A stretch of DNA of 43,463 nucleotides from a virus (Duplodnaviria; Caudoviricetes). How positions within the stretch are numbered: the stretch's first letter is position 1; each line of letters starts with the position of its first letter. Location of the stretch: IMG/VR virus record IMGVR_UViG_3300020045_002735, positions 1 through 43,463 of that record; one strand, written 5' to 3'. Both the position numbers and the translations under genes were made by a program. A model generated the notes under the pieces. That model had not been told where the DNA came from and did not search any database. It saw only the letters and a list, made by a program, of their open reading frames with translations. This document shows positions 12,801-30,771 of the stretch, piece by piece.

Positions 12801-13348
12801 AAATTGAGTCAGATAAACAAGCCGAGGCAGAAGAAAGAAAAATTAAAAGAGAGGCTGCTGAAAGAGATAAACAACTTTCTCTTGCCCGTGTAGTTATAAA
12901 TGGAATAGAGTCTGTTTCTGCTGCATTGAAATTACCTCCTCCTGCTGGTGAAATATTAGCAGCGCAAAGAGGAATTCTTGCAACAATAGCGGCAGCACAA
13001 ATACTTGCAGTTCCAATTCCATCATATGCAGAAGGAACTGATTTTCACCCAGGCGGTAAAGCAAGGTTTGGTGAGGATGGCCCTGAAATAGTTAAAGAGC
13101 CTGGAAAGCCAGCTTATGTTCAGTTGACAGAAACTATATCTTATCTACCAAAAGGAACACAGGTAATACCAATAAAAGATAATTCACCTGAGTTTATGGA
13201 AAATAAATCAGATGATAGTTGGGAGCAAACAAGATTTTTAGCTAAGCAGATTAAGAAAAGCAACAAGGAAATAACAAACGTATTCAAACCAACTATAGTA
13301 GTTGATATGAATTTTGAGTCAAGGAAAAGGCAAATTTTAGGTAACTAA
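9815..13348 (+). CDS. Tape measure protein (1177 aa)
   Basis: Long coiled coil, hydrophobic ILPGLGIAGIF segment, C-terminal YAEGT..HPGG.A.FGEDGPE motif. Confidence 0.88.
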   Translation: MSDGQDIISLGLNMDSFDNNKMEILRKYIQLFTDLSKFDGKIFNPVMGDGLTTFNTSIAQTNKLIDEMNGKLAALNAAQSASSSSSKNAATSNTELGLAMREYAKNVDQAATNQAKLTVLTSEQAKANMVLKLQLSETTKAMFEEIKGTQQATAAKEKAKIIEQEYRLEKERVVATLRALAVEQDKQDKANIIASENAKKVAAEAYRIEQERVVATLRKLAIEQDQKAAADRKESLNQKNLLSDYEKLRIALKNQANEYERLFLAKGKDHAMTKAALADYASTAGVINKIDGNLNKAGAGASGMSKGLGTAFGHLRNIAYILPGLGIAGIFNLAFEAIENVIDAVGLFDKKQNDLIITNTALNNSIAEQIKLYSEMESLRRSFHENYAGISYTGFNPLGTLTDKQLALDANTARGLSQDKLLKQSVETAQKRLDNVTNRVNDTGTFSNPDGSLARVPTASSINNIKEQINRVLFDLGSAQAQSNRIATDIGRKGRNEYGDKHFSVDELKLQKEEQDSLIAFNKNKYDVLNALLKEYFDATNSLQKAKNTLTKFNEDEERKFQFETAKNAVAVNIDKNKKILDSDKKFYEDKESAILKNFEEEKKLNQAAYANVVNNISSTPRDKGIASSNLTTQNNIAERRRDVSLDKNKIEFYQRRLLAITEIQKDEIEMSAISDERIFLNEKHTLQERLDAYENYIVSRQRIKDLEHNLAIQRGAADEGGATSLTEDEKRRIDVHRNTQKFNIQADAEKQTYNIVKSSLDAQLKLVEDANNKEADIDKEAYIKELNANNARFKGKIFQYEAYKRNYDFINKKYKVILSVEDEIKDSEEDVSRLRSLYEDLNEMKEKSDDQLSKKKGDLENERARGGDVLNSERFFDEELGRNNALNDAILKSKKDLNDEIAKGDDARIRQAKAKYEEEIQFEKEYSANMKKIKEDLWDFAGLMINRNVENELQSIQDIQESRNEQFELQKDAVEKSSLNAKDKTALDIQLNQQKIESDKQAEAEERKIKREAAERDKQLSLARVVINGIESVSAALKLPPPAGEILAAQRGILATIAAAQILAVPIPSYAEGTDFHPGGKARFGEDGPEIVKEPGKPAYVQLTETISYLPKGTQVIPIKDNSPEFMENKSDDSWEQTRFLAKQIKKSNKEITNVFKPTIVVDMNFESRKRQILGN
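10323..10488 (+). repeat. 40-aa (120-nt) internal repeat in the tape measure gene
   Basis: AAGAAAGAGTTGTAGCAAC...ATTAGCT.TTGAACAAGA at 10323 and 10443 (ERVVATLR.LA.EQD twice). Confidence 0.85.
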
Positions 13349-16300
13349 TGGACAGGAACATAAAACCAATTTACTGTTTTATATACGATGAGTCGAAAGA
13401 GTTCTATCGTGCTAAACAACTTCCAAATGGAAGTTGGGTTATCACGCATAATTCTGAGATGTATCCATTGAAGTATAATCCTAAAAATCTAAAAGATAGC
13501 CCTGTTGAGTTTGCTACAAATAAGCAATACTTCTCAATGAACAGAAGTATTAACTATCCTTTAGATTTCACTTTCGATGGTGCAGCTATATTGCATCAAA
13601 GATACACTTTGGGAAAAGGTGTTAATGAGATGCTTTACTTTGCAATGTTTGAGTTTGACCCTAATGGTGGAAAATATAAACTAACTTATAATGGAAGGTT
13701 TGATTTTCAGGGAAAAGATAGAGATGATAAATTATCTACATTTACGGTTTCAGTAGTGGATGATTCTTCTTGGGGAATTCTTTCTCAAAACGATGATGTA
13801 CAGTACGCAATAGATTGTTCCGAAAATAATCCAGATACAGTAAAAGTTCTTTTTGATGATTTTACATTATACAACAGGTTCACATATCAAACTGTTCAGG
13901 CTCCAATAACAAGAATTGGATTACCAAACAGTTTTGTTATTCCTTTTGTAATGGTAAATCAAGATGGCGATAGTTCTGGGCTTGTTACTAAAAGCCAAAC
14001 TGGAGATAGCACAGCAAATCAAACTGTTTCTGGTGCACTTGCATCAAATGATTATGTTAAAGATTCTTTGAATTATTTTTTATATTCTTTTTATCAGGTT
14101 AATGATGTTAATATACAAGGAAGTATAAGATTTACATGGAGTATAAATAACTTGGGAGCAAGTCCAATGTATATATTCTTCAGAACATCAACTGGACAAT
14201 CTCAAATAGTTTTTCAGCAGCTTTCTGGTAGTTTAACAGTTGGTCAGATTTACGATATACCTTTCAACTTTGATATTGACCTTGCTCCTGGAGAGAAGAT
14301 ATTCTTCATGACTCAGTTAAATGGTGCTGCAATAAACCTGTTTACAATAACTCCTATAGTAACTAATATATTTGTATCTGTAAATACAAAAGCGGAGTCG
14401 ACTATATGTTACGGACTTAGACCCTTAACCCTATTAAAAGCTATTGTTAGAAAGGCTACTTTTGAAAGATATAGCATTGATTCAGATTTCTTTGCGGCAA
14501 ACAATAACACTATATTGATGCCTGGAGATTCAATTCGTGGTGTTAAAGATTCTAAGATTTACACATCTTTCAAGGACTTCTTTGAAAGTTTTAGTGCTCT
14601 TTTCTTCATGGCTTTAAGAACAGTAAATGGAAATCTGTTCATGGAACTTGCTGATGATGTTTATGGAAATCAAAATACCAACATAATTGATTTAGGTGAG
14701 ATTTCAGAGTGTAAAACATCTCCTGCATCAGAGTACATGGCTAACGAAATTGAAGTTGGCTCTCCAAAACAGGATTACAGGCACGCAAGCGGAAGGTTGG
14801 AGTTTAATGGTCTAATGACATTATCTACTCCATATAACAATATCAAAAGAAAGATGTCTTTTGTTACTAAATATAGAACAGATTGTTATGGTATAATATT
14901 TCTTATTCTGGATTATCGTGGTTTATCCACAAAAGATAATAGCGGTGACAAATCTGTTTTCATAGTTGATATTACAGATGAACTTGGTTCGGCATTAGAG
15001 AACATTGAAACATTCGAGAATATAACTGTTAACAATGCTCCTTTAGCACCGATAATAAAATATCCTTTAACAGGAAGTATTATTAACAACGATTTGCCGT
15101 TATTAAAAGGAGTAGGAATAGTAGGAACAAACGTAAATATTTATATTGGAGCAGTTTTAGATGGTGGTACAACTGTTGGAGTTGATGGAACATGGTCTTA
15201 TCAGATAGTAACACCATTACCATCTTATGACCCAGGAGTATTTGATGGAATATCAGTAATTAATGCTACTAATACAAATATGAGTGGAGCATTAGATACT
15301 ATTCAGTTGTTGATTGATACAACAGTATCTTCTAATACCGGAATAACATATCCAAGACCTGGAGATAGCCTATATAATAATTTGCCTTTAATAAAAGGAG
15401 TTGCACCAGCAGGAACTAATATTGATATTTACATAGACGCAGTTTTAGTTGCATCTGTTGTTGCTGACAACTCTTGTAAGTTTGAATATAAATTAACAGT
15501 TCCTTTAATTAACGGAAATCATTTTATAAATCTGGATGGTAGTTCAACTGGTATAGTTTTTAATATGGATGCTTTCACAGACTATCCAATTATAACTTAT
15601 ATAGGTTCTGAGTTGGATGGATTTCCTTTAGTTAATAATTTACCTTTAATTAGAGGAGTTGGAATACCGGGAACAATAGTTACTATATGGTTAAACTATA
15701 TTAGCTATGCTCCTTTAGGAACTGCTGTTATTGACGCAAATGGTAATTGGAGTTTTCAAGTTGTTGCTGTCAATTATGCAGACCCAAGTAGTGGAGCATC
15801 AATAGTTCTTGCTCCAATTAGGAATGGTGTTAGTACAGTATCAACTTTACTTATTAATAATTCAGTTCAAGTTAATGTAAGTGGATATAAACTTAACAGA
15901 CCGGCATATAGTTCAATAACTGGAGTTATTGATAATACTGTTTTCAATACAAGATTCTCAAGAAAGAGAATGTTGATGAACCACAAGTCTCTTCTTTCAA
16001 GTTTAATGGATAAGCAGAGAAACGAATTTATTGAGTATCAAACACATGATAAAAACCCTAATTTAAGAACTGTATTTGGTACAGAAGTAGTTACAGAACG
16101 GGCTGACATATCACCATCTTCTTTGGGGACTCCGTTGGCTGTTTTAGAAAACGCAAGGATAAAGGTTATTGCAAGAAAATCATTTGCAGAAATCTTATCT
16201 GATTTTAATAACGGTGGAGTTGTTACTGGTAAATTCAAAGGTAAGGATATGTATTTTCTTCCTATTGGAAGTATGAAGATGAAAAGTGTTATGGATAGCG

Positions 16301-17316
16301 TTCAAGAGTTTAATCTATTGATAAGCCCAAGAACAACTTATACACAGTTATTAAATCTTTATAAAAACGGATTAACTATCAATCTCATGCAAAACGCAAT
16401 ATTTCACAGTGATTATAATTCTCTTCATGCAGTTGAGTATAACTATCAACAGCCTGAAAAATATAACTTTAAAACAATGTATCAAGACTGGTTTGACAAC
16501 AGGAATGATGCGTGGTTATTTGGAACTACTAATTATATACAGAAGTATCAAAAAACTGAAATTATAAGAGACCAGATAATTACCAATGGTATATCTTCTA
16601 TGACATTAAGAATGTATAGTTGTAAGGATGCTGAATTGATTGATACTTTTAACTACAATCCAGTTAACCCTGCTCCTATACCAGCGCCTGAAATTGTTTT
16701 AGAGGCAATAGTAGATTTGAATGATTATCCAGTTGGCCAGTATTTCTTTGTTGCTTATGTTAATGAGTTGGCTGTTTACATATTTGAAAGAATTGAAACA
16801 AGAGTTAAATGGCCGAGAACTATATTGATAGAGTCAACAAACTCTGTTAATATGCCTGGAGTTTTTTATTCTACTGGATTTAAAACAATATTGAGAATTG
16901 AAGGTTTAGTAAGAAAATTGCAGCCTGATGTTGATACGGTTGTAGCAAAAGAAGAAAGTGGAAATAAGAAATTGCTTTGGTCTTCATTAGCAAAGAAAAG
17001 AGTAATAAGATATGGAGATGCAAGAGGGATACCAGATTATCTTTCTACAAAAGTTGCAGCGGCAATAATAAACGATACTTGTTTAATTGAGAGAGAGGCA
17101 TATACTATTGAAGAAGGTGAAGGTATTAATCCATCAGAAGATATTCCTGGAGTTCCAATGTTTTATTATGAGGTAATGATGGGTCTTACTGAAAATTCAA
17201 GAGGTAGAGTGTTCGCTGGCGAAGAAGGTGCAGACGTATCTGGTGTTATAATTATTTTAGATGCATCTGCTATTGGCCTTCCAGCACACAGTTTGATAAT
17301 GATAGAAGAGAATTGA
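13348..17316 (+). CDS. Tail tip/hub protein with three inserted bacterial Ig-like domains
   Basis: Follows the tape measure; three repeats of I.YP...NNLPLIKG.G..GT.V.I.I....G....D..G.WS at about 15040-15870. Confidence 0.8.
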   Translation: MDRNIKPIYCFIYDESKEFYRAKQLPNGSWVITHNSEMYPLKYNPKNLKDSPVEFATNKQYFSMNRSINYPLDFTFDGAAILHQRYTLGKGVNEMLYFAMFEFDPNGGKYKLTYNGRFDFQGKDRDDKLSTFTVSVVDDSSWGILSQNDDVQYAIDCSENNPDTVKVLFDDFTLYNRFTYQTVQAPITRIGLPNSFVIPFVMVNQDGDSSGLVTKSQTGDSTANQTVSGALASNDYVKDSLNYFLYSFYQVNDVNIQGSIRFTWSINNLGASPMYIFFRTSTGQSQIVFQQLSGSLTVGQIYDIPFNFDIDLAPGEKIFFMTQLNGAAINLFTITPIVTNIFVSVNTKAESTICYGLRPLTLLKAIVRKATFERYSIDSDFFAANNNTILMPGDSIRGVKDSKIYTSFKDFFESFSALFFMALRTVNGNLFMELADDVYGNQNTNIIDLGEISECKTSPASEYMANEIEVGSPKQDYRHASGRLEFNGLMTLSTPYNNIKRKMSFVTKYRTDCYGIIFLILDYRGLSTKDNSGDKSVFIVDITDELGSALENIETFENITVNNAPLAPIIKYPLTGSIINNDLPLLKGVGIVGTNVNIYIGAVLDGGTTVGVDGTWSYQIVTPLPSYDPGVFDGISVINATNTNMSGALDTIQLLIDTTVSSNTGITYPRPGDSLYNNLPLIKGVAPAGTNIDIYIDAVLVASVVADNSCKFEYKLTVPLINGNHFINLDGSSTGIVFNMDAFTDYPIITYIGSELDGFPLVNNLPLIRGVGIPGTIVTIWLNYISYAPLGTAVIDANGNWSFQVVAVNYADPSSGASIVLAPIRNGVSTVSTLLINNSVQVNVSGYKLNRPAYSSITGVIDNTVFNTRFSRKRMLMNHKSLLSSLMDKQRNEFIEYQTHDKNPNLRTVFGTEVVTERADISPSSLGTPLAVLENARIKVIARKSFAEILSDFNNGGVVTGKFKGKDMYFLPIGSMKMKSVMDSVQEFNLLISPRTTYTQLLNLYKNGLTINLMQNAIFHSDYNSLHAVEYNYQQPEKYNFKTMYQDWFDNRNDAWLFGTTNYIQKYQKTEIIRDQIITNGISSMTLRMYSCKDAELIDTFNYNPVNPAPIPAPEIVLEAIVDLNDYPVGQYFFVAYVNELAVYIFERIETRVKWPRTILIESTNSVNMPGVFYSTGFKTILRIEGLVRKLQPDVDTVVAKEESGNKKLLWSSLAKKRVIRYGDARGIPDYLSTKVAAAIINDTCLIEREAYTIEEGEGINPSEDIPGVPMFYYEVMMGLTENSRGRVFAGEEGADVSGVIIILDASAIGLPAHSLIMIEEN

Positions 17317-17455
17317 TTTTGACGCATTTTAAAGCGATTTAAGCGCATTATATATGTATGAAACGGACATAAAAAAATCATATTAAATTCATCTCTTGGG
17401 CTTAAGAGGTGGCTTAGAGGCAAAATTTGTAACATTATAAACAACATAAAATAAC

Positions 17456-18841
17456 ATGGCAACTGTTGTACTAGACGCATACTCGAAGGCTTATCCCTCG
17501 ATAACAAACAGGATAAGAGCATCTATAACTCTTTCCAATGATGTTGCTATTATAGCCAGTATAATAGATACAACTGTTGGACACCCTGCAAGAGTATGGC
17601 ATTTTCCTGGTCTTTTAAGAGCAAACTATTCTTTTTCACTTGATGAAATAGATGGTGGAGGAACTCCAATAAACAATTTGGCATTGTTTGATGTTGTTCC
17701 TGGTCAGATTGACGGAACGTTAATAAGAAATGATGAACAAATACAAGTTGGAACAACTACAGGTTTTGATGCTGGATTAACAACAGTTACGTTTGATGGA
17801 ACTGGAGGAAAACCTGATTATATCGGATGGGAAATAGTTCCAAGTGAATTAACGGGCAGAGGCATTTTGGTTGAGGGTCTAGATTACTCATGGGTTAGCG
17901 CAACTGGAGTTTTTACATTGTTACAATCTGGAGACCAACTTCAAGATGAAAACTGGTATAACATACATTTTAATCCACAAGAGAATACTACTGGTGGTAG
18001 CGTTCCTTTGAATTCTGATTTTACAGCAAGAATAATAGATGTTGACGATGATATTGAAGTAGAGGATTTTGGCAATACAATTATAGTTGAGCCATCTGGA
18101 GTTTATACAGAATTGCAGTTACCTGATATTACAACTGTTGTTGTTGGAAGAAAGTTAAATATTGAAGTTGAAAAAGCATTAGGTTCTGGAGTTCAATGTG
18201 TAAGAATATTGCCTGATGGAGCAGATGTTATAAACTTTATGAGAGGCAATTTGTTTATGATGAATAATGAGTCTTTAGAAATATATAGATTCTTAAGACC
18301 TGATTTGAGCAATGAGTGGAGAGTAAGAAATGCGCAGGGAAACTTTCATCGTATTGGCGAAAGTGTAGGAGATGATGCTATTCAAACTGGAGTTTATTGT
18401 AAACAGCTTTGGGATGGTTCTATAAGAAATCGCTATCAATATGCAAGAGTTTATGAGGAAATTGTTCTTCGTTTACCGGCAACACAAGTAGTTGACTATG
18501 ACGATTGGGCAACTGGAAATAATAAGTATCTGTTTTCAAAAGCAAATTCAACAGACCCAGGAAATGCAGATAAATTTTATTTTCCTGATAGAAGAAACTT
18601 GTTTGAAAGAAATAATAGTGCCGGAAAAGCAGGTGATTATGCAGATGATGTTATAAAGGTTACTGATTTAAAAGTTGACATTCCTCAAGGTAACAGCTAT
18701 ACAGGTGCTGGTGGGCCTGGAGTATTTGGTCGTGGTGCTGCGTCTCCAAATACAGTAACATTATCGGTTTACGGAACTTTAGGAACCGGAACTGAAACAG
18801 CACCAAAAAATTACTTAACTAATAAATACTGTGTAATATGA
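17456..18841 (+). CDS. Tail fibre/collar-domain protein (no signal peptide)
   Basis: C-terminal FYFPDRRNLFER...AGDYADD...ETAPKN resembles tail-collar/short-fibre ends. Confidence 0.7.
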   Translation: MATVVLDAYSKAYPSITNRIRASITLSNDVAIIASIIDTTVGHPARVWHFPGLLRANYSFSLDEIDGGGTPINNLALFDVVPGQIDGTLIRNDEQIQVGTTTGFDAGLTTVTFDGTGGKPDYIGWEIVPSELTGRGILVEGLDYSWVSATGVFTLLQSGDQLQDENWYNIHFNPQENTTGGSVPLNSDFTARIIDVDDDIEVEDFGNTIIVEPSGVYTELQLPDITTVVVGRKLNIEVEKALGSGVQCVRILPDGADVINFMRGNLFMMNNESLEIYRFLRPDLSNEWRVRNAQGNFHRIGESVGDDAIQTGVYCKQLWDGSIRNRYQYARVYEEIVLRLPATQVVDYDDWATGNNKYLFSKANSTDPGNADKFYFPDRRNLFERNNSAGKAGDYADDVIKVTDLKVDIPQGNSYTGAGGPGVFGRGAASPNTVTLSVYGTLGTGTETAPKNYLTNKYCVI

Positions 18842-21800
18842 AAAATATGAAACTCTTAGTAGCTATCGCAATGCTTTTTTATTGCGGGTCTGTATTTTCC
18901 CAAATTTACACTCCAGTAGTACCTACGACTTGGGGTTTGAAAGTAAACAGGATACAATCTCTTTCAACTTCTCATATTCCAAGTGGAGGAACAAACACAT
19001 TAAACGGAGGAAGCGTAGACCCTGGAGGTTTGTTTTTTAATACTGGAGATAATTACTTCTATGCTTGGAACGGAACTACATTTGATAAGTATGCAAAATT
19101 TTCAGATGTATCTGGAGGTATGACTAATCCAATGACTACTTTGGGAGATATAATTTATATGAACGCAACTCCAGTTCCTGCAAGATTAGCTGGAAATACA
19201 ACTACCGCAAAGAAGATGTTATCGCAAACTGGTAACGGCTCTATAAGCGCATCTCCTTCATGGGAAGTTTTAGTAGCTGGAGATATTCCAGACATATCGG
19301 CAACTTATTTAACAGTAGCTACGGCAGCAACATTGTATCAGCCATTAGATGCAGATTTAACTGCAATATCAGCATTGTCTGGAACGAACACTATTTATTA
19401 CCGTTCAGCATCTAATACATGGACAGCGGTAACAATAGGAACTGGAATGTCTTTTTCTGGAGGAACATTAAGTTCAACGATAACTGGAACAGTAACTAGT
19501 GTAACAGGAACTACAAACAGAATAACATCTAGTGGTGGCGCAACACCTGTTATAGATATTGCAGCTACTTATGTTGGTCAAACATCTATAATAACTTTGG
19601 GAACGGTATCCACTGGTGTTTGGAACGGAACAACTATTGCTATTGCAAACGGAGGTTCTGGACAGACAACAGCAAATGATGCACTTAATGCTTTTTTACC
19701 TACACAAGCAACTCACTCTGGAAAGTTTTTACAAACCGATGGCTCAAATACTTCTTGGGCTTCTGTATCTGGTTCTGGTACTGTTAACGGTGGAACTATA
19801 TATCAATTAGCTTATTATAGCGCAACAGGAACTGCCGTATCTGGATTAACCGCTATAACGGCTTCAAGAGCACTGGTATCAGATGCCAACGGATTGCCAG
19901 TAGCATCTACGGTTACAACAACTCAGTTAAGCTATGTTGATGCAACATCTTCTATACAAACTCAATTAAATGCAAGGCTTACTGCCGAAGTTGATGGTAG
20001 TGTTACTAACGAACTTCAAACGTACCAACAGGTAATGACAACTGGTAGTACATTAACTGGAAATAATACTATAGCTGGCGGTGGATTTACTTATGCTTTT
20101 ACAAATGGCAGGTTTACAACTCCGATGGGAGCAACTGTAGCTGCTGCAAATAATCTTACTTTAGGAACAGACGGAAATTTGTTTACTATTTCTGGTAACA
20201 CTACTATAAATGCAATTACTTCTGCAAGTTGGCAAGCTGGTTCAGAATTAAGATTATACTTTACTGGCACACCATTATTAAAAAATAATACTGCTGGTGG
20301 TGGTGGAACAGCTAAGATGAGATTATCTGGTAATGTTGATTATACTGTAGCTGCTGGAGATATTATTACATTTGTTTATGATGGTTCAGAATTTAAAGAA
20401 TCTGCAAGAATGTTATACGCTGTTGCTTCTGGTACAACTCCTTTAAGTTCTATAACAGCCGCAACTGCATCTAATGTAATAAGTAATGCTGCTTATCAAC
20501 AAACTTGGGATTGGAATAGTTTAGCCTCAGGAATAGGATTAAGGTTGTTATCTACATCTACATCTGCATCTGCTGGAAGCCAAACAATATTAAGCATTGA
20601 GCAATCTGGAGCAAACGTATCTTCTGGACAAGCTACCTATGCTCAAACCATTATTCATACAAAAACTGGAACTACTTCTGAAAACGTTGGAACTTGGTAT
20701 AGTGTTAGTGGTGGAGCATCAAGAAACGATGCAATAGAAATTGCTTCAGGAAGGTTTTATATGAGAAACACTACCGAACAAACAAGAATAGGTTATGATG
20801 CAAGTAATTATTATACGACAACAGTTAACAGTACTGGTAGTCCTACATTTAATGCTGTAGGCACTTCGCCAGAATTTACTTTTAGCGATGCTGTTAACGT
20901 TCCAGATTTTGCTTATGATGCTACTTCTTGGAATGGTAATACTGAAGTTCCCACAATGAACGCCATAAGAGATAAAATTGAAAGTATGGGTAGTGGAAGT
21001 GGTACTGTAACCAGTGTCGCTTGGACAACTTCTCAAGGAGTCAGCGCCTCGATTGCAACAGCTACAACTACCCCAAATATAACGATTACTTTAGGTGCCT
21101 TGACAGGAGTAACAAGTTTTAATGGATTGGTAATTACGGCTAATACTGGAGTAGTAACAACAGGAACTTGGAACGCATCTATTATTGGTAAGGCTTATGG
21201 AGGTACTGCAGAAGATAATAGCACTGGAGGCACGGCTAATACTTTTTGGGCAAGGCCAAATGGAGCAACTGGAGCAGCTACATATAGGGCGATAGTTGCG
21301 GCAGATATTCCTACTTTAAATCAATCGACAACTGGTAGTGCAGCCACTTTAACTACTACCAGAACTATATGGGGTCAAAACTTTAATGGCTCTGCCAATG
21401 TAACTGGAGACATAACGTTAAGCACTTCAAGTATAACAATGACTGGTAGTATAGCGGCTACTGGGGCAAGAGTTACGAAAGGTTGGTTTACTGATGTAGA
21501 GTCAACTAATATGTACACCGTTGGAGGTACTTCATTAACTACTGTTGCACAAACATTTCAGAATAAAACTTTAACCAGTTCTAATAATGTTATTGGTGGA
21601 GTTACAATGACTTTAGGCAGTGACGCTTCTTGGGATATATATGTAAGAAATGCTTCTGGAATATTAGAAAGGCTTGCCAATGGAACGTCAGGACAATTTC
21701 TTGGAGCAAATACTTCTGCTAAACCAAGCTGGCAAACACCGAGTGGAGGTACGGTAACTGGTGGAGCAGATGGTTTAAGTTTGAGTGGTGGAAATATTAT

Positions 21801-22617
21801 AATGGGAGGTTCTGCCTTTACGGCTAATAGGAGTATAACAACAAGTATATATTCTTTAACTGTTCCAAGTAGTAACGGAACAACTACAATGGCAATATCA
21901 AATTCAAGTTCTGGTTCAGGCTCAAATATTTCCTCTAATTCTGGTGTTGGTGCAAATATTTCTTCAACTTCTGGAATAGGTTTAACGGTAACAACAGGAA
22001 CTGGTTCATATTCATTAAAAACTGTTTATACAGGAGTGGCTACAAGCACTCCAGAAACTATTGCAATGTTTACGGCAAATTCAAGCAATACTCCTGCTTC
22101 CGGATATGGAGGATTGATAAACTATAACTTAAAATCAAGCACAACAATAGAACAACCTGCTGCAATGTTTGGATGGAGTTGGGCAACCGCTACGCATGGT
22201 TCAACTGTTGCCACAATAAAATTAGGTGCAGTATATAATGCTTCTATGAATGTCATGTGGATAGCTACGCCTACTTCAAGTTCTGGTGCTCAACAAAGTT
22301 TCTTAGGCCAAATAGGCACTGGACAATTCGCTCTTACAGATGCGGCTACCATAGCAATAGATTTCAATAATGGGCTAACTCAAAAAGTCACTTTAGGCGG
22401 TAACAGAACAATAACTTTTTCAAACCCGGTTGCTGGCAATAAGTACCTTATACATTTAAAGCAAGATGGTACTGGTTCGAGAACAATTACTTGGCCTACT
22501 ATAAAGTGGCAAGGCGGCACTACACCAACTCTTACGACTACCGCAAGTAAAAGCGATTTGATATTTATTACTTATGACGGTACTGATTACTTTGGTGAAT
22601 ATTCTTTAAACTTTTAA
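18838..22617 (+). CDS. Long S/T/G-rich tail-fibre-like protein with N-terminal Sec signal peptide
   Basis: MKNMKLLVAIAMLFYCGSVFS|Q; fibre motifs GTVTSV, G.WN...I....GG, QPLDADLTAI; C-terminal TLGGNRTITFSNP...QDGTGSRTITWP..KW.GG..PTLTT domain. Confidence 0.8.
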   Translation: MKNMKLLVAIAMLFYCGSVFSQIYTPVVPTTWGLKVNRIQSLSTSHIPSGGTNTLNGGSVDPGGLFFNTGDNYFYAWNGTTFDKYAKFSDVSGGMTNPMTTLGDIIYMNATPVPARLAGNTTTAKKMLSQTGNGSISASPSWEVLVAGDIPDISATYLTVATAATLYQPLDADLTAISALSGTNTIYYRSASNTWTAVTIGTGMSFSGGTLSSTITGTVTSVTGTTNRITSSGGATPVIDIAATYVGQTSIITLGTVSTGVWNGTTIAIANGGSGQTTANDALNAFLPTQATHSGKFLQTDGSNTSWASVSGSGTVNGGTIYQLAYYSATGTAVSGLTAITASRALVSDANGLPVASTVTTTQLSYVDATSSIQTQLNARLTAEVDGSVTNELQTYQQVMTTGSTLTGNNTIAGGGFTYAFTNGRFTTPMGATVAAANNLTLGTDGNLFTISGNTTINAITSASWQAGSELRLYFTGTPLLKNNTAGGGGTAKMRLSGNVDYTVAAGDIITFVYDGSEFKESARMLYAVASGTTPLSSITAATASNVISNAAYQQTWDWNSLASGIGLRLLSTSTSASAGSQTILSIEQSGANVSSGQATYAQTIIHTKTGTTSENVGTWYSVSGGASRNDAIEIASGRFYMRNTTEQTRIGYDASNYYTTTVNSTGSPTFNAVGTSPEFTFSDAVNVPDFAYDATSWNGNTEVPTMNAIRDKIESMGSGSGTVTSVAWTTSQGVSASIATATTTPNITITLGALTGVTSFNGLVITANTGVVTTGTWNASIIGKAYGGTAEDNSTGGTANTFWARPNGATGAATYRAIVAADIPTLNQSTTGSAATLTTTRTIWGQNFNGSANVTGDITLSTSSITMTGSIAATGARVTKGWFTDVESTNMYTVGGTSLTTVAQTFQNKTLTSSNNVIGGVTMTLGSDASWDIYVRNASGILERLANGTSGQFLGANTSAKPSWQTPSGGTVTGGADGLSLSGGNIIMGGSAFTANRSITTSIYSLTVPSSNGTTTMAISNSSSGSGSNISSNSGVGANISSTSGIGLTVTTGTGSYSLKTVYTGVATSTPETIAMFTANSSNTPASGYGGLINYNLKSSTTIEQPAAMFGWSWATATHGSTVATIKLGAVYNASMNVMWIATPTSSSGAQQSFLGQIGTGQFALTDAATIAIDFNNGLTQKVTLGGNRTITFSNPVAGNKYLIHLKQDGTGSRTITWPTIKWQGGTTPTLTTTASKSDLIFITYDGTDYFGEYSLNF

Positions 22618-22619
22618 CC

Positions 22620-22706
22620 ATGCCAATTATATTTTATAACATAGCAAAAAGAATGAGGATAGGTAAGAAATTAATTTACGTCCGCAAAAAATCTAAAAAG
22701 AAATGA
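22620..22706 (+). CDS. Tiny basic ORF, 28 aa (MPIIFYNIAKRMRIGKKLIYVRKKSKKK)
   Basis: Fills the gap exactly; ATGA overlap with the 22703 start. Confidence 0.4.
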   Translation: MPIIFYNIAKRMRIGKKLIYVRKKSKKK

Positions 22707-23527
22707 AATTAATAGCAACCATATTTTTATCTCTTTTATTATTTTCTTTTGAGGATAAAAAAGAAATAAAAGATATTCAGTACAGAAGTTTCTATTCCGA
22801 AATGAAGGCTCTTGAAAAACCGCCAAAGGTTACGGCTTTTTCAACTGTTCAAACAGCATCTAATCAAGCTAATTCTGCAAATACTTGTTCTGTAACAATA
22901 TCTTCATCAGGTGCTAATAATTTAATAGTAGTATCTGTTTTATTATTAGCCGCAAATAGTATAACGAGTATAACTGATAATGTTGGACATACTTACGTTT
23001 TAGGTTCTACTTATGCTGTCGCAACTTTTTTTACTACTGCACATGGTTACGGATTTCAAACAACAGGAGGGACTACAAGTGTCACTGTTACAGTTAGTGG
23101 TAATACAGACATTTGTGTTATAGTGGACGAATATTCTGGTTTTACCGGGACACCAACAAATGCAGAATGTTATGATACTGGAAATGCAGGGACAACTAAT
23201 ACTGCCGGTGTATCAATTCAAACTCCGGGTTTTTCTCCAATTAATACTGGTTGTTTAATTGTTACTTCTGGATATGAACTTGGAGTAGCTCCTAATTTAT
23301 CCGCAAGCAGCGGCTTTACTCATTTAGGCACCGGTTCTTATTATGGAACTCCTTACTTTAGTTCATATTATAAGTTATCAGGAACTATGAGTGAAGATGG
23401 TAAAATATTAAATCCTGATGCCTATACAGGATATTCTTATGTTTTTGCAAAATCATTTAAACAAGAAAACGCAACTCCGCCACCTTCTGCCGGAAAAGCA
23501 ATTCGTTCATCATCTTTTAAACCTTAA
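22703..23527 (+). CDS. Fibre-associated beta-sandwich protein with hydrophobic signal-like N-terminus
   Basis: MKLIATIFLSLLLFS; GANNLIVVSV...ITSITDNVGHTY pattern common next to phage fibres. Confidence 0.65.
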   Translation: MKLIATIFLSLLLFSFEDKKEIKDIQYRSFYSEMKALEKPPKVTAFSTVQTASNQANSANTCSVTISSSGANNLIVVSVLLLAANSITSITDNVGHTYVLGSTYAVATFFTTAHGYGFQTTGGTTSVTVTVSGNTDICVIVDEYSGFTGTPTNAECYDTGNAGTTNTAGVSIQTPGFSPINTGCLIVTSGYELGVAPNLSASSGFTHLGTGSYYGTPYFSSYYKLSGTMSEDGKILNPDAYTGYSYVFAKSFKQENATPPPSAGKAIRSSSFKP

Positions 23528-23531
23528 TAAA

Positions 23532-24179
23532 ATGAAAAAATTATTTTTATTACCTTTTTTGTTATTGTCTTTAGCTTCTTACGGTCAGCCTAAAAATTGG
23601 GTTATTACAACAGAAAGCGATACTATATTTTTAATATCTCCAAGTGACGATACTTTAAAGAGGTATAAACCACTAATTTTTCCCGGTGCTACTATGAAAT
23701 GGCTTACTGAAAAAGCTGCAGATAGCATATCAAAAAATATTGATAAACAACACACAAAAATAATAACTGGTAATGTTGTTAATTCTGCAAACAATACTCT
23801 TGCAGATATTACAAATTTATCTTTTGATGTTAGTGCCGATACTTTATACAGTTTTAAATTTTTCATAGTATATAATTCAGCGGCAACAACAACCGGCAGC
23901 CGCTGGACTATAAATGGGCCTGCTAATACATTTTTACATTATACAAGCCAGTACACTTTAACAGCAACATCTTTTACTTTTAATACTTGTTCTGCATATA
24001 ATTTTCCATCTGCAGCCAATGCAAGTTCTTTAACTTCAAATAATATTGCTATAATAGAAGGAATAATAAAACCAAGTGCATCTGGGACGGTAATAGCAAG
24101 GTTTGCAAGTGAGGTGAACAGCAGCGCAATAACAGTACAGGCTGATAAGAGTTTTGTACAATTCAAAGTAATTAATTAA
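23532..24179 (+). CDS. Exported protein with fibre-head (C1q/BclA-like) C-terminal domain; start moved to ATG 23532
   Basis: MKKLFLLPFLLLSLASYG|Q; LADITNLSF.V.A...YSFKF and GTVIARFASEV patterns. Confidence 0.7.
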   Translation: MKKLFLLPFLLLSLASYGQPKNWVITTESDTIFLISPSDDTLKRYKPLIFPGATMKWLTEKAADSISKNIDKQHTKIITGNVVNSANNTLADITNLSFDVSADTLYSFKFFIVYNSAATTTGSRWTINGPANTFLHYTSQYTLTATSFTFNTCSAYNFPSAANASSLTSNNIAIIEGIIKPSASGTVIARFASEVNSSAITVQADKSFVQFKVIN

Positions 24180-24200
24180 ATCACAATAAAAACAAACAAG

Positions 24201-24578
24201 ATGAAAAAAATCCCGGTAATTATCAGTGCATTATTTCTGTTTTCGTGCAGCCAAAGTAAAACAGAGTTGAAATCAGGTTTTAAGGACCTTTATGCAATAA
24301 TTCTTCAAAAAGATAGCACAAGAACTTTTGGTGTTGTTGGAGAAGAGATTGTTATTGATGACAGTACATCTGCAAAAAGAAACAAATTGACTTACAAAAC
24401 AATGTACGGAGTAAGAACATTTAGTTACAAACTTGACAGCCTGGGTAAGCAAATTAGAGATTCTTTAGGAAATCCAATTCTTAATCCACAGCCTATTTAC
24501 ACAATAATTTCTAAAGATTCAATTCTTATATTAAGCCACACTTCAGTTGACAGCTTACTTAAAAAAGGAAAGTTTTAA
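24201..24578 (+). CDS. Lipoprotein (125 aa)
   Basis: MKKIPVIISALFLFS-C lipobox. Confidence 0.75.
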   Translation: MKKIPVIISALFLFSCSQSKTELKSGFKDLYAIILQKDSTRTFGVVGEEIVIDDSTSAKRNKLTYKTMYGVRTFSYKLDSLGKQIRDSLGNPILNPQPIYTIISKDSILILSHTSVDSLLKKGKF

Positions 24579-24603
24579 TTTTAAACTAATAAATTTTTAA
24601 TAG

Positions 24604-25149
24604 ATGTATCTTGGTAAACTATTTTGGGGACTTATGTTAATAGGTATAAATTTCATAATGTCTCCAAGGGCAACGACAATTAGCGTTTTATTCTGCTTAG
24701 TGTTTATTGACTTTATAACAGGTGTTATTAAGGCTAAAATAAATGGTACAGCAAGAACAAGCGAAGGCTTTAGAAGAACATTAAAGAAAATACCTGGATA
24801 CATAATAGTACCAGTAGTTCTTTGGCTTGGTGGTGTATATGCAAAAACTCATGTAGTAAGTACTGAAAGTATAGACATGATAAAAATGGCAAAAATTTTA
24901 CAAGATGCAAGTGGCTGGATTATGCTTTTCATTATGTATATAGAAGTAACAAGCATACTAGAAAACCTATCTGAAATTGATAAACACGGTTCACTTAACA
25001 AGTATTTTGTTAAACCACTTCTTATAATATTGAAAATAGGTATTGACAATAATCCTATGAAAAGACTTTCAGATAAAATAACAGTTGAAAAAGAAAGTAA
25101 AGACACTAAAACAACTGTAACAGTAGAAACTGAAGAAAAACCTAAATAG
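24604..25149 (+). CDS. Holin (Phage_holin_4_1/TcdE-like)
   Basis: Multiple hydrophobic helices; IDFITGVIKA, SEGFRRTLKK and EVTSILENL motifs; charged C-terminal tail. Confidence 0.85.
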   Translation: MYLGKLFWGLMLIGINFIMSPRATTISVLFCLVFIDFITGVIKAKINGTARTSEGFRRTLKKIPGYIIVPVVLWLGGVYAKTHVVSTESIDMIKMAKILQDASGWIMLFIMYIEVTSILENLSEIDKHGSLNKYFVKPLLIILKIGIDNNPMKRLSDKITVEKESKDTKTTVTVETEEKPK

Positions 25150-25176
25150 TATTTATTCACCTTTAAAAATAGAAAC

Positions 25177-25434
25177 ATGAAACAGTTCTTTTTGAATCTT
25201 GTATCTGGCGCTTTTGCTGATGCAGGAGAAACAAAGCTGGAAGAAGTATTACAGCAACTTCATGAAAAAGACCTTGATGGCTACAAAGCAGCTATCTATG
25301 GAGGTCTTGCATTGGTGAAAGCATTGAAACCTTTAACAGAGAAATCTGCTAATAAGATTGATGATGCTTTCATTAATGCAGTTTCAGATGCTCTTACTGA
25401 TTCTGCAAAAGCAAACGGCTTGGAATTGGCTTAA
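25177..25434 (+). CDS. Small lysis-region protein (85 aa)
   Basis: Amphipathic helices; S.NKIDD motif common in lysis cassettes. Confidence 0.6.
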   Translation: MKQFFLNLVSGAFADAGETKLEEVLQQLHEKDLDGYKAAIYGGLALVKALKPLTEKSANKIDDAFINAVSDALTDSAKANGLELA

Positions 25435-25439
25435 TCATT

Positions 25440-25474
25440 TAAGACCCCTGCAACGTCATTCGGCAGGGGTCTTA
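25440..25474 (+). terminator. Stable hairpin (terminator or processing site)
   Basis: TAAGACCCCTGC / GCAGGGGTCTTA perfect 12-bp stem, 11-nt loop, weak U-tract. Confidence 0.6.
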
Positions 25475-25488
25475 TTAAAACTTAAAAA

Positions 25489-26157
25489 ATGAAGGATTCT
25501 ACAAAAATATTAATATCTATTTCAGTTGCCGCTGCACTTTGGATTGGAGGCTGCTATCATGGGGAAAGCAGATGGACAGTTAAAAATGGTGGTTCTGATA
25601 CTGCAATTACCAAAAGAAAAATTGTCCATGTTGGTATCCCTATACCAGTAAGAGTTGTTGAAGATAGTATTGTTTATGTAAAAGAAAAAACAACTGATAG
25701 CTTTTATGTTGATGTACCTTTATCAGATACAGTTCGTATTCCATACACTGTTCCAGATTGGATGGTGAATATTCTTAACGACTATGGAAAAACAAGATAC
25801 TATGACACTTCCGTAATAAATGGAAAAGACACAGTCCGATTTTCAAATATTGTCAGACGAAACAAAATAGATTCTCAAAAGATAAATGCTGTTTTCTATG
25901 ACTCTGTAATTACTCACAAAAAAATTATTTATCCACCAAAGAAGACTGTAGTTTCATTCTTAATATCTGGAATGGGTAACTATTTATTAAACCGTTTCGG
26001 TGGTGGAGCTGGTTTACAATTAAAGACTCCTACCGATAAAACTTACAGCGTCCAAGTTAAGAAGGTACATAACTTACCTATTCTTTTTGAGGGAACTGTC
26101 GGAATACCAATTCGTCTAAAAATATTTCCTAATTTATTTAAAAAAGATTCTTTATGA
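25489..26157 (+). CDS. Putative spanin-like envelope protein
   Basis: N-terminal hydrophobic helix with possible lipobox IGG-C, extended V/D/T-rich stalk, C-terminal amphipathic strands; lies between holin and endolysin. Confidence 0.5.
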   Translation: MKDSTKILISISVAAALWIGGCYHGESRWTVKNGGSDTAITKRKIVHVGIPIPVRVVEDSIVYVKEKTTDSFYVDVPLSDTVRIPYTVPDWMVNILNDYGKTRYYDTSVINGKDTVRFSNIVRRNKIDSQKINAVFYDSVITHKKIIYPPKKTVVSFLISGMGNYLLNRFGGGAGLQLKTPTDKTYSVQVKKVHNLPILFEGTVGIPIRLKIFPNLFKKDSL

Positions 26158-26819
26158 ATGTATTAAAGTTTATAACTGGTAATATTCAGTTAGCAATTAC
26201 TCCTAAATCAACTATTGCATTACAAAACGAGAAATTGTTTTACTCTGCAATATTAAGGGTTGATAAAATAAAAGAGATTGATACCGTATTAAACAAGTTG
26301 ATGCCAAAGCAAGACTTATATGAAACGGTTGCAAAGAAAGTAAATAAAGATATGCCTTGGTGGTTTGTACTTATGGTACACGCTATGGAGGCAGGACACT
26401 TTGCAAATCCATTCAATTATCATCTTCATTGTGGAGACCCTTTAACATCAAGAACATTCCATGTTCCAAAAGGAAGACCTAAACACAATCCAAGATTTGG
26501 TGCATCTCCTCCAACAGTTAAAAATCCTTACAGTTGGGAAGAGTCGGCCTTGGATGCTTTAATGTTATTAAAGTATAATAGTGTAAAAGACTGGTCATTA
26601 GGAAACATACTTTGGTTGTTTGAAGAGTTCAATGGTCTTGGTTATCGTAAGTATCATAAAAGCGTTCCTACCCCGTATGTGTGGAGTTATACCAGCATTT
26701 ACTCTAAAGGTAAATATGTTGCTGATGGTAAGTTCGATAACAATGCAATCTCGAGACAACCGGGCTGTGCAGCTTTTCTTTTGAGGTTAAAGCAACTTGG
26801 AAGAGTTGGTATAGTTTAA
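26154..26819 (+). CDS. Endolysin, lysozyme family (COG5526-like)
   Basis: HAMEA, LHCGDPL, HVPKGRP, FNGLGYR, PTPYVWS and GKYVADGKFD motifs. Confidence 0.88.
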   Translation: MNVLKFITGNIQLAITPKSTIALQNEKLFYSAILRVDKIKEIDTVLNKLMPKQDLYETVAKKVNKDMPWWFVLMVHAMEAGHFANPFNYHLHCGDPLTSRTFHVPKGRPKHNPRFGASPPTVKNPYSWEESALDALMLLKYNSVKDWSLGNILWLFEEFNGLGYRKYHKSVPTPYVWSYTSIYSKGKYVADGKFDNNAISRQPGCAAFLLRLKQLGRVGIV

Positions 26820-26921
26820 CATTAGTTTAACAATGTTTGGCACGATACCCTGCTAAAAATCGTTTTAACAAAACGTTAACAACAAAAATTTGGTGTTATA
26901 ATATGGTATCGCTTACATTTG
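26816..26921 (+). promoter_or_regulatory. Early promoter with phased TTAAC boxes
   Basis: TTTG 26889-92, 21 nt, TACATTTG 26914-21; TTAAC pairs at 26816/26827 and 26865/26876. Confidence 0.75.
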
Positions 26922-26939
26922 CTATTCAATATTAAACCA

Positions 26940-27122
26940 ATGGAAAGCAAAACACCAGAAATGAGAAAGATTGAGAACCAGATAACAGCTATCGAGTCTG
27001 CAATCAAAAAACAAATTGAGTTTCCTAAACCAACAGTAAATTTATTTGCTTTGAATAATAAGTTAAAGACATTACGAAATACACTTGAAGGAATGAAAAA
27101 CTTTGAGTGGTTGGCAAAGTAA
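26940..27122 (+). CDS. Small coiled-coil protein (60 aa); start moved to ATG 26940
   Basis: The called TTG start lies inside the -7 promoter element. Confidence 0.65.
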   Translation: MESKTPEMRKIENQITAIESAIKKQIEFPKPTVNLFALNNKLKTLRNTLEGMKNFEWLAK

Positions 27123-27261
27123 GTTCAGGGGTCTGCAGATGGAATGAACACGGTTTCTTGTAAAGTTGCTATTTACCGTAAAAATAATCAACTGTTATCT
27201 CAAACGCCCCGTACTTGGATTGATTTCCGAGACGGGGATTTGAGTTACAAAAACAAATATT

Positions 27262-27384
27262 ATGAAACAGCAGTTTTGGAACGGATTTTATATGGCAGCA
27301 GGAGCAATACTGTTTCTGCTTGTCATGGCTTGTGCAACCGGTTTAGTTTACTACGTTGCAACAAATTTATCTTCTAATCCTTAA
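27262..27384 (+). CDS. Small membrane protein, 40 aa (MKQQFWNGFYMAAGAILFLLVMACATGLVYYVATNLSSNP)
   Basis: Hand translation; A-rich start; single hydrophobic helix. Confidence 0.6.
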   Translation: MKQQFWNGFYMAAGAILFLLVMACATGLVYYVATNLSSNP

Positions 27385-27404
27385 TAAATTAAAACCCGGA
27401 AATT

Positions 27405-28235
27405 ATGAGTGTTACTCCATTAAGCAATGCACAAATCTTAGCGAAAGAAAGAGAGCAAAAAGAAAAAGAAAAACAACTTCAGTTAGCTAAAGAAAAGGAA
27501 ATGTTCTCATTTCCAAAGCTGGCTCAAATGAGTGGTCTTGATGAACAAATGTTGATGGTTATACAGAACAGTGTAGCCAAAGACACATCACCTGCTGAAT
27601 TTGCATACTTTTTAAGTGTTGCAAAAGACCAACAACTCAGTGCCATCAATAAAGAAATATGGTGCTACAAGAATCACAAAGGAGATGTTATCATTTTCAC
27701 AGGCAGGGATGGATTCCTCAAGAGAAATAAAATGATGCCATCTTACCGTGGAATGAAGACAGCAGAAGTTTGTGAACTTGATGAGTTCGAGATTGATATG
27801 GTTACAAATGAGATTACTAATCATAAAATTACAAATAACAGAGGAAAATTGATTGGGGCATACTGTGTTGTTTACCATGATGGAATGGAGCCTACAACTG
27901 TTTATTTGGATTTTGAAGAGTTTGACTTGGGTCAAGCTAAATGGAAAACATCACCAAAGATGATGTTGAAGAAATGTGCTCAATCTCATGCTTTGAAAGA
28001 GGCTGCCGGTATCACAGGAATACAAGCTGCAGAAAGCTGGAATGTTAAAGATGGTGTTGCTTCGGCTGATAAGCAAGAGCAAGCAACTGAAGATGTTTCA
28101 CATGAAGAAGTTCGTTTGGAAGAGTTAATAAATTCTGCTCCAGACTTGGAAACTCTGAATAAGCATCTGAAACATTGTGAAACCCCTGCGATGATTAATT
28201 TGTTTAATAAGAGGAAAAAAGAATTGGGAGCATAA
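27405..28235 (+). CDS. bet: Single-strand annealing protein (Bet/RecT family)
   Basis: EFAYFL..AK...LS...KEIW, TGRDGF, GAYCVV and W...PKMMLKKCA..HALKEA motifs. Confidence 0.88.
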   Translation: MSVTPLSNAQILAKEREQKEKEKQLQLAKEKEMFSFPKLAQMSGLDEQMLMVIQNSVAKDTSPAEFAYFLSVAKDQQLSAINKEIWCYKNHKGDVIIFTGRDGFLKRNKMMPSYRGMKTAEVCELDEFEIDMVTNEITNHKITNNRGKLIGAYCVVYHDGMEPTTVYLDFEEFDLGQAKWKTSPKMMLKKCAQSHALKEAAGITGIQAAESWNVKDGVASADKQEQATEDVSHEEVRLEELINSAPDLETLNKHLKHCETPAMINLFNKRKKELGA

Positions 28236-28238
28236 GTT

Positions 28239-28490
28239 ATGGCTAAAAACAGAAATACTGCTCATGCTCCAGAATGTGATGGCTGCGGAGAAATTATGAA
28301 ACTTGAAAAAGCTGGTCATGTTGCAGTCGAAAGAGGAAAATGTAGAATAAGAAGATTTGTTTGCAGTGTTTGTGATATAAAGAAAACAATTTATGCTAAT
28401 GGAGCAGGTGATGATAATAGAGTTTATGATGCACTAGAAGACCAAAAGAAATTACATAAGCAACAAGAAGACTATAATAAGAGATTTTAA
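28239..28490 (+). CDS. Zinc-ribbon protein
   Basis: CDGC and CSVC cysteine pairs. Confidence 0.65.
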   Translation: MAKNRNTAHAPECDGCGEIMKLEKAGHVAVERGKCRIRRFVCSVCDIKKTIYANGAGDDNRVYDALEDQKKLHKQQEDYNKRF

Positions 28491-28501
28491 AATTAAGAAT
28501 C

Positions 28502-29377: not shown

Positions 29378-29597
29378 AAAAGACGGAATTATTTACGCCT
29401 GTGAAGAAGGTTTTGAAGACCGTGCCATAGGAACTCTTTTCCCTAATGCAACAGAGGAAGATGAACGTATTATTGAGTGTGGCTCTGAGGCTATTCCTAT
29501 TGTAGAGGAGTTTATTGAAAAAGTTAACTCTGGAAAATTTACTCCAAAAACCGTTGTAAAAGAATTTGAACAACTACTTTTGCGCCATGCAGTCTAA
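29361..29597 (+). CDS. Hypothetical protein (78 aa)
   Basis: ORF track; overlaps both neighbours. Confidence 0.55.
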   Translation: MTLKIKKDGIIYACEEGFEDRAIGTLFPNATEEDERIIECGSEAIPIVEEFIEKVNSGKFTPKTVVKEFEQLLLRHAV

Positions 29598-30198: not shown

Positions 30199-30235
30199 GG
30201 TGCTGCTTAAAGTTGTGCATAACAACTGTATGGTT

Positions 30236-30308
30236 TTCCTTGTATCTCAGTGGCCAGAGGCCCGGAACGTACAGCCGGTAGTCGCAGGTTCGAATCCTGC
30301 CAAGGAAA
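30236..30308 (+). tRNA. Degenerate tRNA-like gene, nominal anticodon GTA (Tyr)
   Basis: Acceptor TTCCTTG/CAAGGAA, D arm TCTC-AGTGGCCA-GAGG, anticodon arm CCGG-AACGTACAG-CCGG, T arm GCAGG-TTCGAAT-CCTGC; no encoded CCA. Confidence 0.8.
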
Positions 30309-30321
30309 CAAAAATTATATT

Positions 30322-30621: not shown

Positions 30622-30771
30622 TTTTCAACGTTTTAGCTAACGATTTTAAGCCGTTTTAAGCCGTTTTAATTTTATACATACATTCACCCGATTTTGTTAC
30701 TATAATTCAATTCTACGCCAGAGAATGGTGTTAGAGGCAATTTTTACACCATATTACAAATTACAAATAAC

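Follow-up and report, generated by a model that had tools for sequence, protein, structure and literature searches.

The receptor-binding fibres and tailspikes of tailed phages, such as gp22 of crAss001, TSP4 of CBA120 and gp10/gp12 of T4, join a conserved N-terminal docking module to a variable receptor-binding tip and are synthesized without a leader; T4 fibres and P22 tailspikes attach late, to finished particles, and we know of no described tailed-phage assembly that is not cytoplasmic. Here we analyse a tail-fibre cassette in an uncultured, long-tailed phage, IMG/VR record IMGVR_UViG_3300020045_002735 (the window, 43,463 nucleotides long, is the entire virus record; completeness 98% by CheckV), in which the fibre shares this design, with a collar adaptor whose fold resembles TSP4/gp10, but is preceded, as are neighbouring genes, by a predicted export leader. 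Annotators have used the absence of signal peptides to mark phage structural proteins (PMC6199706), and a term search of the crAss001 report, in which gp22 docks via residues 1-26, gave no mention of signal peptides (PMC10172136).

Signal peptides on fibre-like proteins are known from the mosaic adhesive trimer (MAT) fibres of Bdellovibrio, which are displayed on the cell surface: these trimers resemble phage fibres, have variable tips behind a signal peptide and a conserved N-terminal domain, may carry an S74 chaperone, and show that fibres of this kind can mature after export (PMC10769870). They differ from the fibre described here in being chromosomal and cell-displayed, with a conserved domain of ~130 aa after the signal peptide, and the analogy is by description only. 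Prophages of Porphyromonas gingivalis carry five genes of unknown function whose signal peptides, as in the window, obey the Bacteroidota Q-rule (Gln after a small residue; PMC5837995); the passages concerned read them as outer-membrane modifiers and do not identify them as fibres or virion parts (PMC10367356). Signal peptides have also been counted in rumen Bacteroides phages (PMC5723332). We found no description of Sec-exported parts of tailed-phage virions in the open-licence literature, outside which most subscription papers lie, and no paper there mentioning the fibre-slot leaders of the Cellulophaga phages considered below.

In the window the cassette is flanked by the leaderless 17456 gene on one side and by a Phage_holin_4_1 gene on the other (coordinates and predicted cleavage sites are collected in Table 1). 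Leaders were called by alignment together with a hydrophobicity rule. A basic n-region, an uncharged h-region, small residues at -3 and -1 and Gln at +1 are present in the fibre, in the 215-aa fibre-head protein and in the 6205 protein encoded beside the capsid gene, and so three proteins do follow the Q-rule, as a sequence-only reading of this DNA had stated. The coordinates and N-termini of all five genes (18838, 22703, 23532, 24201 and 6205) agree with that reading, including the start of the 215-aa gene at 23532, where the context is A-rich, against a poor context at 23418, and where the collection's gene call also gives 215 aa. Its claim of four consecutive genes with export signals stands for the Q-rule leaders of the fibre and 215-aa protein and for the lipoprotein, which has the small residue before Cys of a signal peptidase II lipobox; it is weakest for the 274-aa protein, whose hydrophobic N-terminus lacks both Gln and a clear c-region and may be an uncleaved anchor, and a 28-codon open reading frame (ORF) intervenes. 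Similarly, the fibre and receptor-binding motifs that had been seen in the protein bodies are borne out by the fibre tip, which matches tail proteins, and by the fibre-head of the 215-aa protein, but the lipoprotein gave no family match and no fibre motif in Pfam/NCBIfam and PHROG scans, and nothing above lead level in an atlas search. The second in-frame ATG of the fibre gene (18847) still retains the leader.

The leaders are genuine, and they are both conserved and widespread. The collar (17456) protein has 161 homologs, and in all 25 aligned cases (the window and 24 loci, with duplicates and loci ending before the fibre excluded; two of the loci, L029 and L033, are almost the same) the collar gene is followed by one whose product opens with a shared ~66-aa N-terminal domain, which has a leader ahead of it in 20 and stands directly at the start in 5. 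Searching with a profile of the mature N-terminal domain by itself (E<=0.001) gave 591 cluster representatives, of which the best 150 were read; with one fragment and one cellular QVGIGT-type protein (P0222) dropped, 148 matches plus the window gave 149 rows, clustered at 50% identity. A leader lies ahead of the domain in 140 of the 149 and is absent in nine. [AGSCT]Q stands at the domain start in 138 of the 140 leader-bearing rows, versus 8% per random window; the residue at -1 is Ser, Ala or Gly in 128/135 leaders, and D or E occurs in merely 5/135. In the nine leaderless orthologs the domain starts at residue 1-5 (M-IY, MS-IY or similar), which is the predicted cleavage site of the others. 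Leaderless rows cluster both on the N-domain tree (149 rows, 72 columns; 2 changes versus 8.8 when shuffled) and on the collar tree (25 rows; 2 versus 4.7), each read without a fixed root.

Genes in this slot have the features of tail fibres or tailspikes: they follow the tail tip, join a conserved N-terminal domain to a variable tip, and contain fibre domains, the leader-bearing ones carrying the tailspike domains S74, K1-lyase_C, pectate-lyase-like and YadA head. A PDB sequence search gave no match for the N-terminal domain or the window fibre. Cellular-type secreted QNVGIN/QVGIGT proteins (P0337, P0352, P0363, P0399 and P0222) share a fibre-head or N-terminal module with phage fibres, which suggests that host adhesins and phage fibres exchange modules. 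A Cys-Gly pair within the leader (18883-18888 in the window) recurs in 81/135 fibre leaders, with Trp substituting for Cys in 12 rows; the bulky preceding residue (F/L/I/Y) and the Trp substitutions rule it out as a lipobox.

The sequon of Bacteroidota O-glycosylation, D-(S/T)-(A/I/L/V/M/T), receives glycans on exported proteins only (PMC8729774). We counted it in 136 leader-bearing and 9 leaderless fibres (a fragment, a cellular protein and three uncertain starts being dropped from the best 150). Leader-bearing fibres hold 1088 sequons against 433 expected (ratio 2.5), or 898 against 409 outside the shared domain, while the leaderless fibres hold 24 against 22.8 (1.05); control motifs gave ratios of 0.59 (E-[ST]-x) and 1.12 (the reversed motif), and among 119 long leader-bearing fibres the ratio is at least 1.5 in 100. 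In a comparison of 11 genomes the ratio was 2.4 in leader-bearing fibres, 3.4 in proteins encoded just after the capsid gene (15 versus 4.4 expected) and 2.7 in leader-bearing cassette proteins (38 versus 13.8); it was 0.9-1.2 in leaderless counterparts and 1.03 in the 328 ORFs whose N-terminus is not hydrophobic (239 versus 231). The head domain of the 215-aa protein, which has 1018 homologs, gave a similar result: of 120 proteins compared, 53 were called leader-bearing (two probably falsely) and 67 not (a few of them truncated), with ratios of 2.06 and 0.65 respectively, the head itself being depleted in both. Within the window, the 23532 protein has 4 sequons (1.0 expected), the lipoprotein 6 (0.6 expected) and the 6205 protein 1. 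In addition, a PxxCG motif is accompanied by a second Cys in 43/43 fibres, and any Cys occurs in that region in just 11/93 others; such co-variation is expected of a disulfide.

A leader also precedes the 6205 protein, a small jelly-roll encoded beside the major capsid gene, as is typical of capsid cement. Its AlphaFold2 model is a confident jelly-roll (predicted local distance difference test 88.8) that matches the Bordetella phage cement 3j4u_H (Z 8.8, root-mean-square deviation 2.9, 106 residues aligned) and the Carin1 capsid chain 8cjz_B (Z 8.2), in a fold so generic that the many matches include an unrelated protein at the top (Z 9.8); a PDB sequence search gave matches only at E>0.1. We predict that the protein is a capsid decoration (cement). 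[AGS]Q occurs within residues 6-36 in 50/50 of its homologs; 37 satisfy the leader rule in full, and the gene calls of the other 13 begin at a Met within the leader.

A leader-bearing post-capsid gene is present in 8 of the 11 genomes (G000, G002-G005, G008-G010), and a leader-bearing fibre is visible in seven of these eight, the fibre start of G002 being cut by the contig end. In the genomes with leaderless fibres (G001, G006 and G007, the last two near-identical) the post-capsid gene is absent and all 14 cassette genes are leaderless, pectate lyase included. No recognisable endolysin, spanin or lipoprotein follows the cassette in these three (G001 21216-27171, G006 13635-18000, G007 26773-31600), in scans with Pfam, which missed the likely endolysin of the window too; they have instead a leaderless pectate lyase and a proline-rich protein of 168-219 aa. 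Comparison strongly supports the Sec routing that had been proposed for the cassette of this one phage, but shows the trait to be family-wide, not uniform, and to include the post-capsid gene. In L042-L044 (G002), L048 (G004) and L050 (G005) the post-capsid gene is followed by a 282-aa connector gene, whose N-terminus resembles the second domain of the collar (NDEQIxVG...FDGTxGKPDY), fused to a head-tail connector.

Leaders of this kind are found in cultured phages. The products gp101-104 of Cellulophaga phage phi19:1 (KC821607), gp085-087 of phi18:3 (KC821620) and gp091-094 of phi10:1 (KC821618) are all leader-bearing and annotated as structural proteins detected by tandem mass spectrometry (MS/MS); the adjacent membrane and lysis genes have no MS/MS note, and phi10:1 gp095 has a leader and no such note. 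Nekkels_1 gp53-55 are also leader-bearing, and the fibre-slot genes of Hattifnatt9-1 and P12002S are leaderless, so the trait is not universal. As in the window, the consecutive fibre-slot genes of the Cellulophaga phages precede the lysis genes and Gln follows a small residue in 10/11 leaders, and phi19:1 has a distant capsid (27%) and a shared hub domain; unlike the window, these phages have other fibre sequences and no collar ortholog, and their records omit mention of leaders.

Pan5 (ON968456) has orthologs of the 6205 protein (gp7 ‘cement’, E=4e-24), of the collar (gp17, E=8e-17, found by profile only) and of the hub (E=3e-28). Its gene order is that of the window, with Q-rule leaders on gp7 and on gp18 and gp19 (fibre, lyase), and with 14 sequons in gp18 (3.5 expected) and 5 in gp22 (0.4 expected); it differs in having a fibre N-terminal domain unmatched at E<=0.1, a split hub and a different capsid and portal. 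Pan5 is an isolated, CsCl-purified siphophage reported from a cyanobacterium (‘Pseudanabaena’) in culture with companion bacteria, and its ‘cement’ label comes from cryo-EM or AlphaFold2, the passages concerned not specifying which (PMC9837993). The Pan5 genes at 2946-3347, 15043-19087 and 19658-20299 (L086) combine Q-rule leaders and a Bacteroidota-type sequon excess with kinship to the window's family; a Bacteroidota companion bacterium may be its true host.

Because the leaders are conserved and predicted to be cleavable, and because leader-bearing proteins co-purify with virions in cultured analogues, the simplest account is one of Sec export, cleavage, folding and modification in the periplasm, and attachment at lysis via the exposed N-terminal domain, to which we assign a probability of about 0.65. 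Sequence comparison shows the leaders and their conservation, the sequon and Cys patterns and the gene order; export, cleavage, glycosylation, docking and the timing of docking are what we infer from it, and these observations constrain the mechanism well. The fibre, the 215-aa protein and the 6205 protein would leave the cytoplasm through the Sec machinery of the host, lose their leaders and fold in the periplasm, where they would be exposed to glutaminyl cyclase, disulfide formation and the D-(S/T)-x O-glycosylation system; heads and tails would be built in the cytoplasm, and the exported parts would join them once the holin opens the inner membrane. As the phage has a holin and a leaderless likely endolysin, lysis would bring the contents of cytoplasm and periplasm together. 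The mature N-terminal domain of the fibre would dock on the leaderless collar/hub, and the leaderless sister phages presumably dock the same domain made in the cytoplasm. The likely benefits of such a route are that host glycans and disulfides become available to the phage and that parts which adhere or cut polysaccharides do not sit on the particle before it is released. Both the 274-aa protein and the lipoprotein probably reach the same compartment, and they are tied to this mechanism only loosely.

Several observations weigh against this account. The window fibre itself has no strict sequon (nor has the 274-aa protein), and D-[ST] follows this pattern, occurring at 0 of 39 Asp against 11.4 expected, with 0/5000 shuffles as low and S/T-D at expectation. 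Purging of glycan sites has been proposed for abundant surface proteins (PMC8729774), and the window fibre appears, on a post hoc reading, to have been purged of them, so that most family fibres would appear selected to gain glycan sites and the window fibre to avoid them; a test that accepts a deficit as well as an excess as a sign of the periplasm is weaker for it. The virion proteins of phi19:1 and phi18:3 are sequon-poor too (4 versus 12.8 and 3 versus 9.7 expected), and 8 of the 119 long leader-bearing fibres have a ratio below 1. Conversely, the leaderless collar family has a ratio of 1.41 and the leaderless N-terminal domain retains 6 sequons against 1.7 expected, and the homologs are related, so that z-scores overstate their independence. 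G008 is mixed, with a leader-bearing fibre followed by two leaderless genes. The MS/MS notes of the Cellulophaga phages show co-purification rather than attachment or cleavage, and their fibres match the family N-terminal domain weakly (E=0.0024 among 30 proteins); the reported host of Pan5 is a cyanobacterium. No close cultured member of the family was found, tblastn with the collar, 215-aa and 274-aa proteins giving no cultured match, and a search of genome contigs found no prophage or host genome, its one match being a 25-residue chance similarity.

The best-surviving alternative, which we nevertheless consider unlikely, is that the leaders are real but that the virion copies remain cytoplasmic, through leaky late export or trimming by a phage protease, and arm the particle before lysis. 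This would keep the phage within cytoplasmic assembly, the only kind known to have been described for tailed phages, and the existence of leaderless orthologs means that the domain can work without export. Prohead-protease cleavage has, moreover, been suggested for signal-like leaders on capsid proteins (PMC10367356). Cytoplasmic retention would, however, leave it unexplained that the Q-rule and the -3/-1 residues of signal peptidase I type are maintained across 135 divergent leaders, and that it is chiefly in leader-bearing proteins that sequon use departs from expectation. Translation from a start downstream of the leader, which the sequence-only reading had named as a result that would count against export, finds no support, as Met occurs within the last eight leader residues in just 13/135 and there is thus no conserved internal start; a conserved mRNA hairpin at the fibre leader was rejected (z -1.85 to +2.07 in 23 loci).

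Somewhat less probable again is that the exported proteins are not on the particle at all but are freed at lysis as adhesins, decoys or depolymerases that aid escape and spread of the progeny. Several relatives' cassette proteins do look like host-type secreted enzymes (PKD and pectate-lyase domains), and the cellular secreted fibre-like proteins that share modules with phage fibres (P0222; P0363 on a 3.2-Mb contig) are in keeping with such a role, which may hold for the 274-aa protein or for accessory enzymes. Against it, the N-terminal domain and variable tip after the collar in every one of the 25 loci form the pattern of a tail fibre, leaderless orthologs sit in the same slot, and the cultured slot proteins bear MS/MS structural notes. 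Maturation in the periplasm with arming at lysis, blocking of receptors from inside the cell, and release as free adhesins or decoys had all been offered by the sequence-only reading; the first is clearly favoured, because the leaderless orthologs keep the same domain and slot and the cultured Cellulophaga slot proteins are annotated as MS/MS structural, while free decoys are possible and less likely, and exclusion is weak.

We regard as improbable, more so than free release, that the proteins remain within the infected cell's envelope, either blocking receptors (superinfection exclusion) or displayed on the surface as MAT fibres are in Bdellovibrio (PMC10769870). Outer-membrane modification was proposed for Q-rule phage genes (PMC10367356), and the cassette does include a lipoprotein, for which alone an envelope role is most plausible. 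The genes lie, however, in the late structural block and overlap the collar gene, a Pfam scan of the 53 window ORFs found no integrase or repressor family, and the cultured analogues carry MS/MS structural notes. Nor was a T9SS (type IX secretion system) C-terminal-domain family, which the sequence-only reading had not seen either, among the Pfam/NCBIfam matches of the window and related proteins, though divergent domains can escape detection; the libraries scanned presumably contain models of it. Finally, the phage could have captured its fibre genes from secreted proteins of the host and kept the leaders as relics without function, as the likeness of the N-terminal domain to a module found in secreted cellular proteins of QVGIGT type (P0222) might suggest. 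This is very improbable and largely refuted by the conservation of the leaders in rows clustered at 50% identity, by the rarity of D/E within them and by their independent presence on the unrelated cement-like gene.

Taking the account of export and attachment at lysis further, we see about an even chance that Bacteroidota phages practise a two-compartment assembly, in which heads and tails would be made in the cytoplasm while secreted fibres, tailspikes and cement, bearing pyroglutamate, disulfides and O-glycans, would snap on at lysis. Virions would then wear the glycans of their last host, fibre lineages would tune their glycosylation through gain or purging of D-S/T sites, and the sister lineage would have reverted to cytoplasmic fibres and lost the cement gene, with no recognisable endolysin. 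Tailed-phage particles have so far been taken as completed in the cytoplasm, and secreted, periplasm-matured virion parts would, if real, constitute a new assembly step coupled to lysis. Adsorption, stability and host range could then depend on host glycosylation, and production of such fibres in E. coli would leave out their modifications. The use of signal-peptide absence by annotators as a mark of structural proteins (PMC6199706) would also be affected. All of this is testable in the cultured phages phi19:1, phi10:1, phi18:3 and Pan5.

Table 1. Features of the fibre cassette and associated genes, in window coordinates
Feature	Position	Strand	Remarks
Single jelly-roll protein, 138 aa	6205-6621	+	directly 3' of major capsid gene; ETQA|QGV, predicted cleavage A23|Q24
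Tail-tip hub, leaderless	13348..17316	+	PHROG 15220 virion structural protein; homologs in Pan5, P12002S and phi19:1 (gp98)
Collar/short-fibre adaptor, leaderless	17456..18841	+	461 aa; stop overlaps fibre start
Fibre gene	18838-22617	+	1259 aa; N-terminus ...SVFS|QIY
Predicted Sec signal peptide of fibre (signal peptidase I)	18838..18900	+	predicted cleavage S21|Q22; family-conserved Cys-Gly inside
Conserved ~66-aa N-terminal fibre domain (IYxPxxPTxYG..R..HxP)	18901..19098	+	predicted virion-attachment/trimerisation module
Mosaic fibre body and C-terminal head	19099..22617	+	lacks Cys and D-S/T dipeptides; C-terminal matches to phage tail/minor-tail proteins
Putative 28-codon basic (Lys/Arg-rich) ORF	22620-22706	+	overlaps 22703 start codon
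274-aa beta-sandwich	22703-23527	+	hydrophobic N-terminus MKLIATIFLSLLLFS; no Q-rule, cleavage uncertain; four Cys
215-aa fibre-head protein	23532-24179	+	leader ...ASYG|QPK (G18|Q19), sequon-rich linker, widespread fibre-head domain
Predicted lipoprotein, 125 aa	24201-24578	+	LFS-C16; sequon-rich
Lysis block	24604..26819	+	holin, 85-aa protein, likely spanin (222 aa, membrane-anchored), likely endolysin (221 aa, leaderless)

Almost all genes of the window share one strand, in the order terminase, portal, prohead protease, HK97-type capsid, tail genes, a 1177-aa likely tape measure and the 1322-aa hub, followed by the 461-aa collar-like gene, the cassette, the holin and replication genes. A Bacteroidota host is probable, since among named cultured phages the capsid is best matched in those of Cellulophaga and Flavobacterium (27-28%) and the leaders obey the Q-rule. 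No sequencing runs covering 17456-26157 were listed. The AlphaFold2 model of the collar gave partial matches to a Lilla1 baseplate chain (E=7.7e-4), to the N-terminus of CBA120 TSP4 and to T4 gp10, and the collar is likely to be the docking platform for the fibre. Among the family loci compared, neither the 28-codon ORF nor, by tblastn, the 274-aa protein had a relative; the atlas neighbours of the latter are virus clusters (feature score 0.92-0.93). The lipoprotein is possibly a periplasmic assembly helper or part of a spanin.

The window holin belongs to PF05105. Pfam/NCBIfam scans gave no family match for the 222-aa and 221-aa proteins, whose probable identities as spanin and endolysin come from position and sequence. 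The likely spanin (25489-26157) has an N-terminal hydrophobic segment, Cys22, 10 D-S/T dipeptides among 14 Asp, and 7 sequons; the spanins of relatives are sequon-rich too, and spanins may thus be glycosylated. An 87-aa non-structural gene at 40326-40589, with a hydrophobic N-terminus and two sequons, is a candidate membrane or exclusion protein. A KTSC domain fused to an acidic tail that ends in DDLPF, a tail typical of single-strand-binding proteins, recurs across the family (window 29566-30198; L040 9998-10555; L068 16839-17378).

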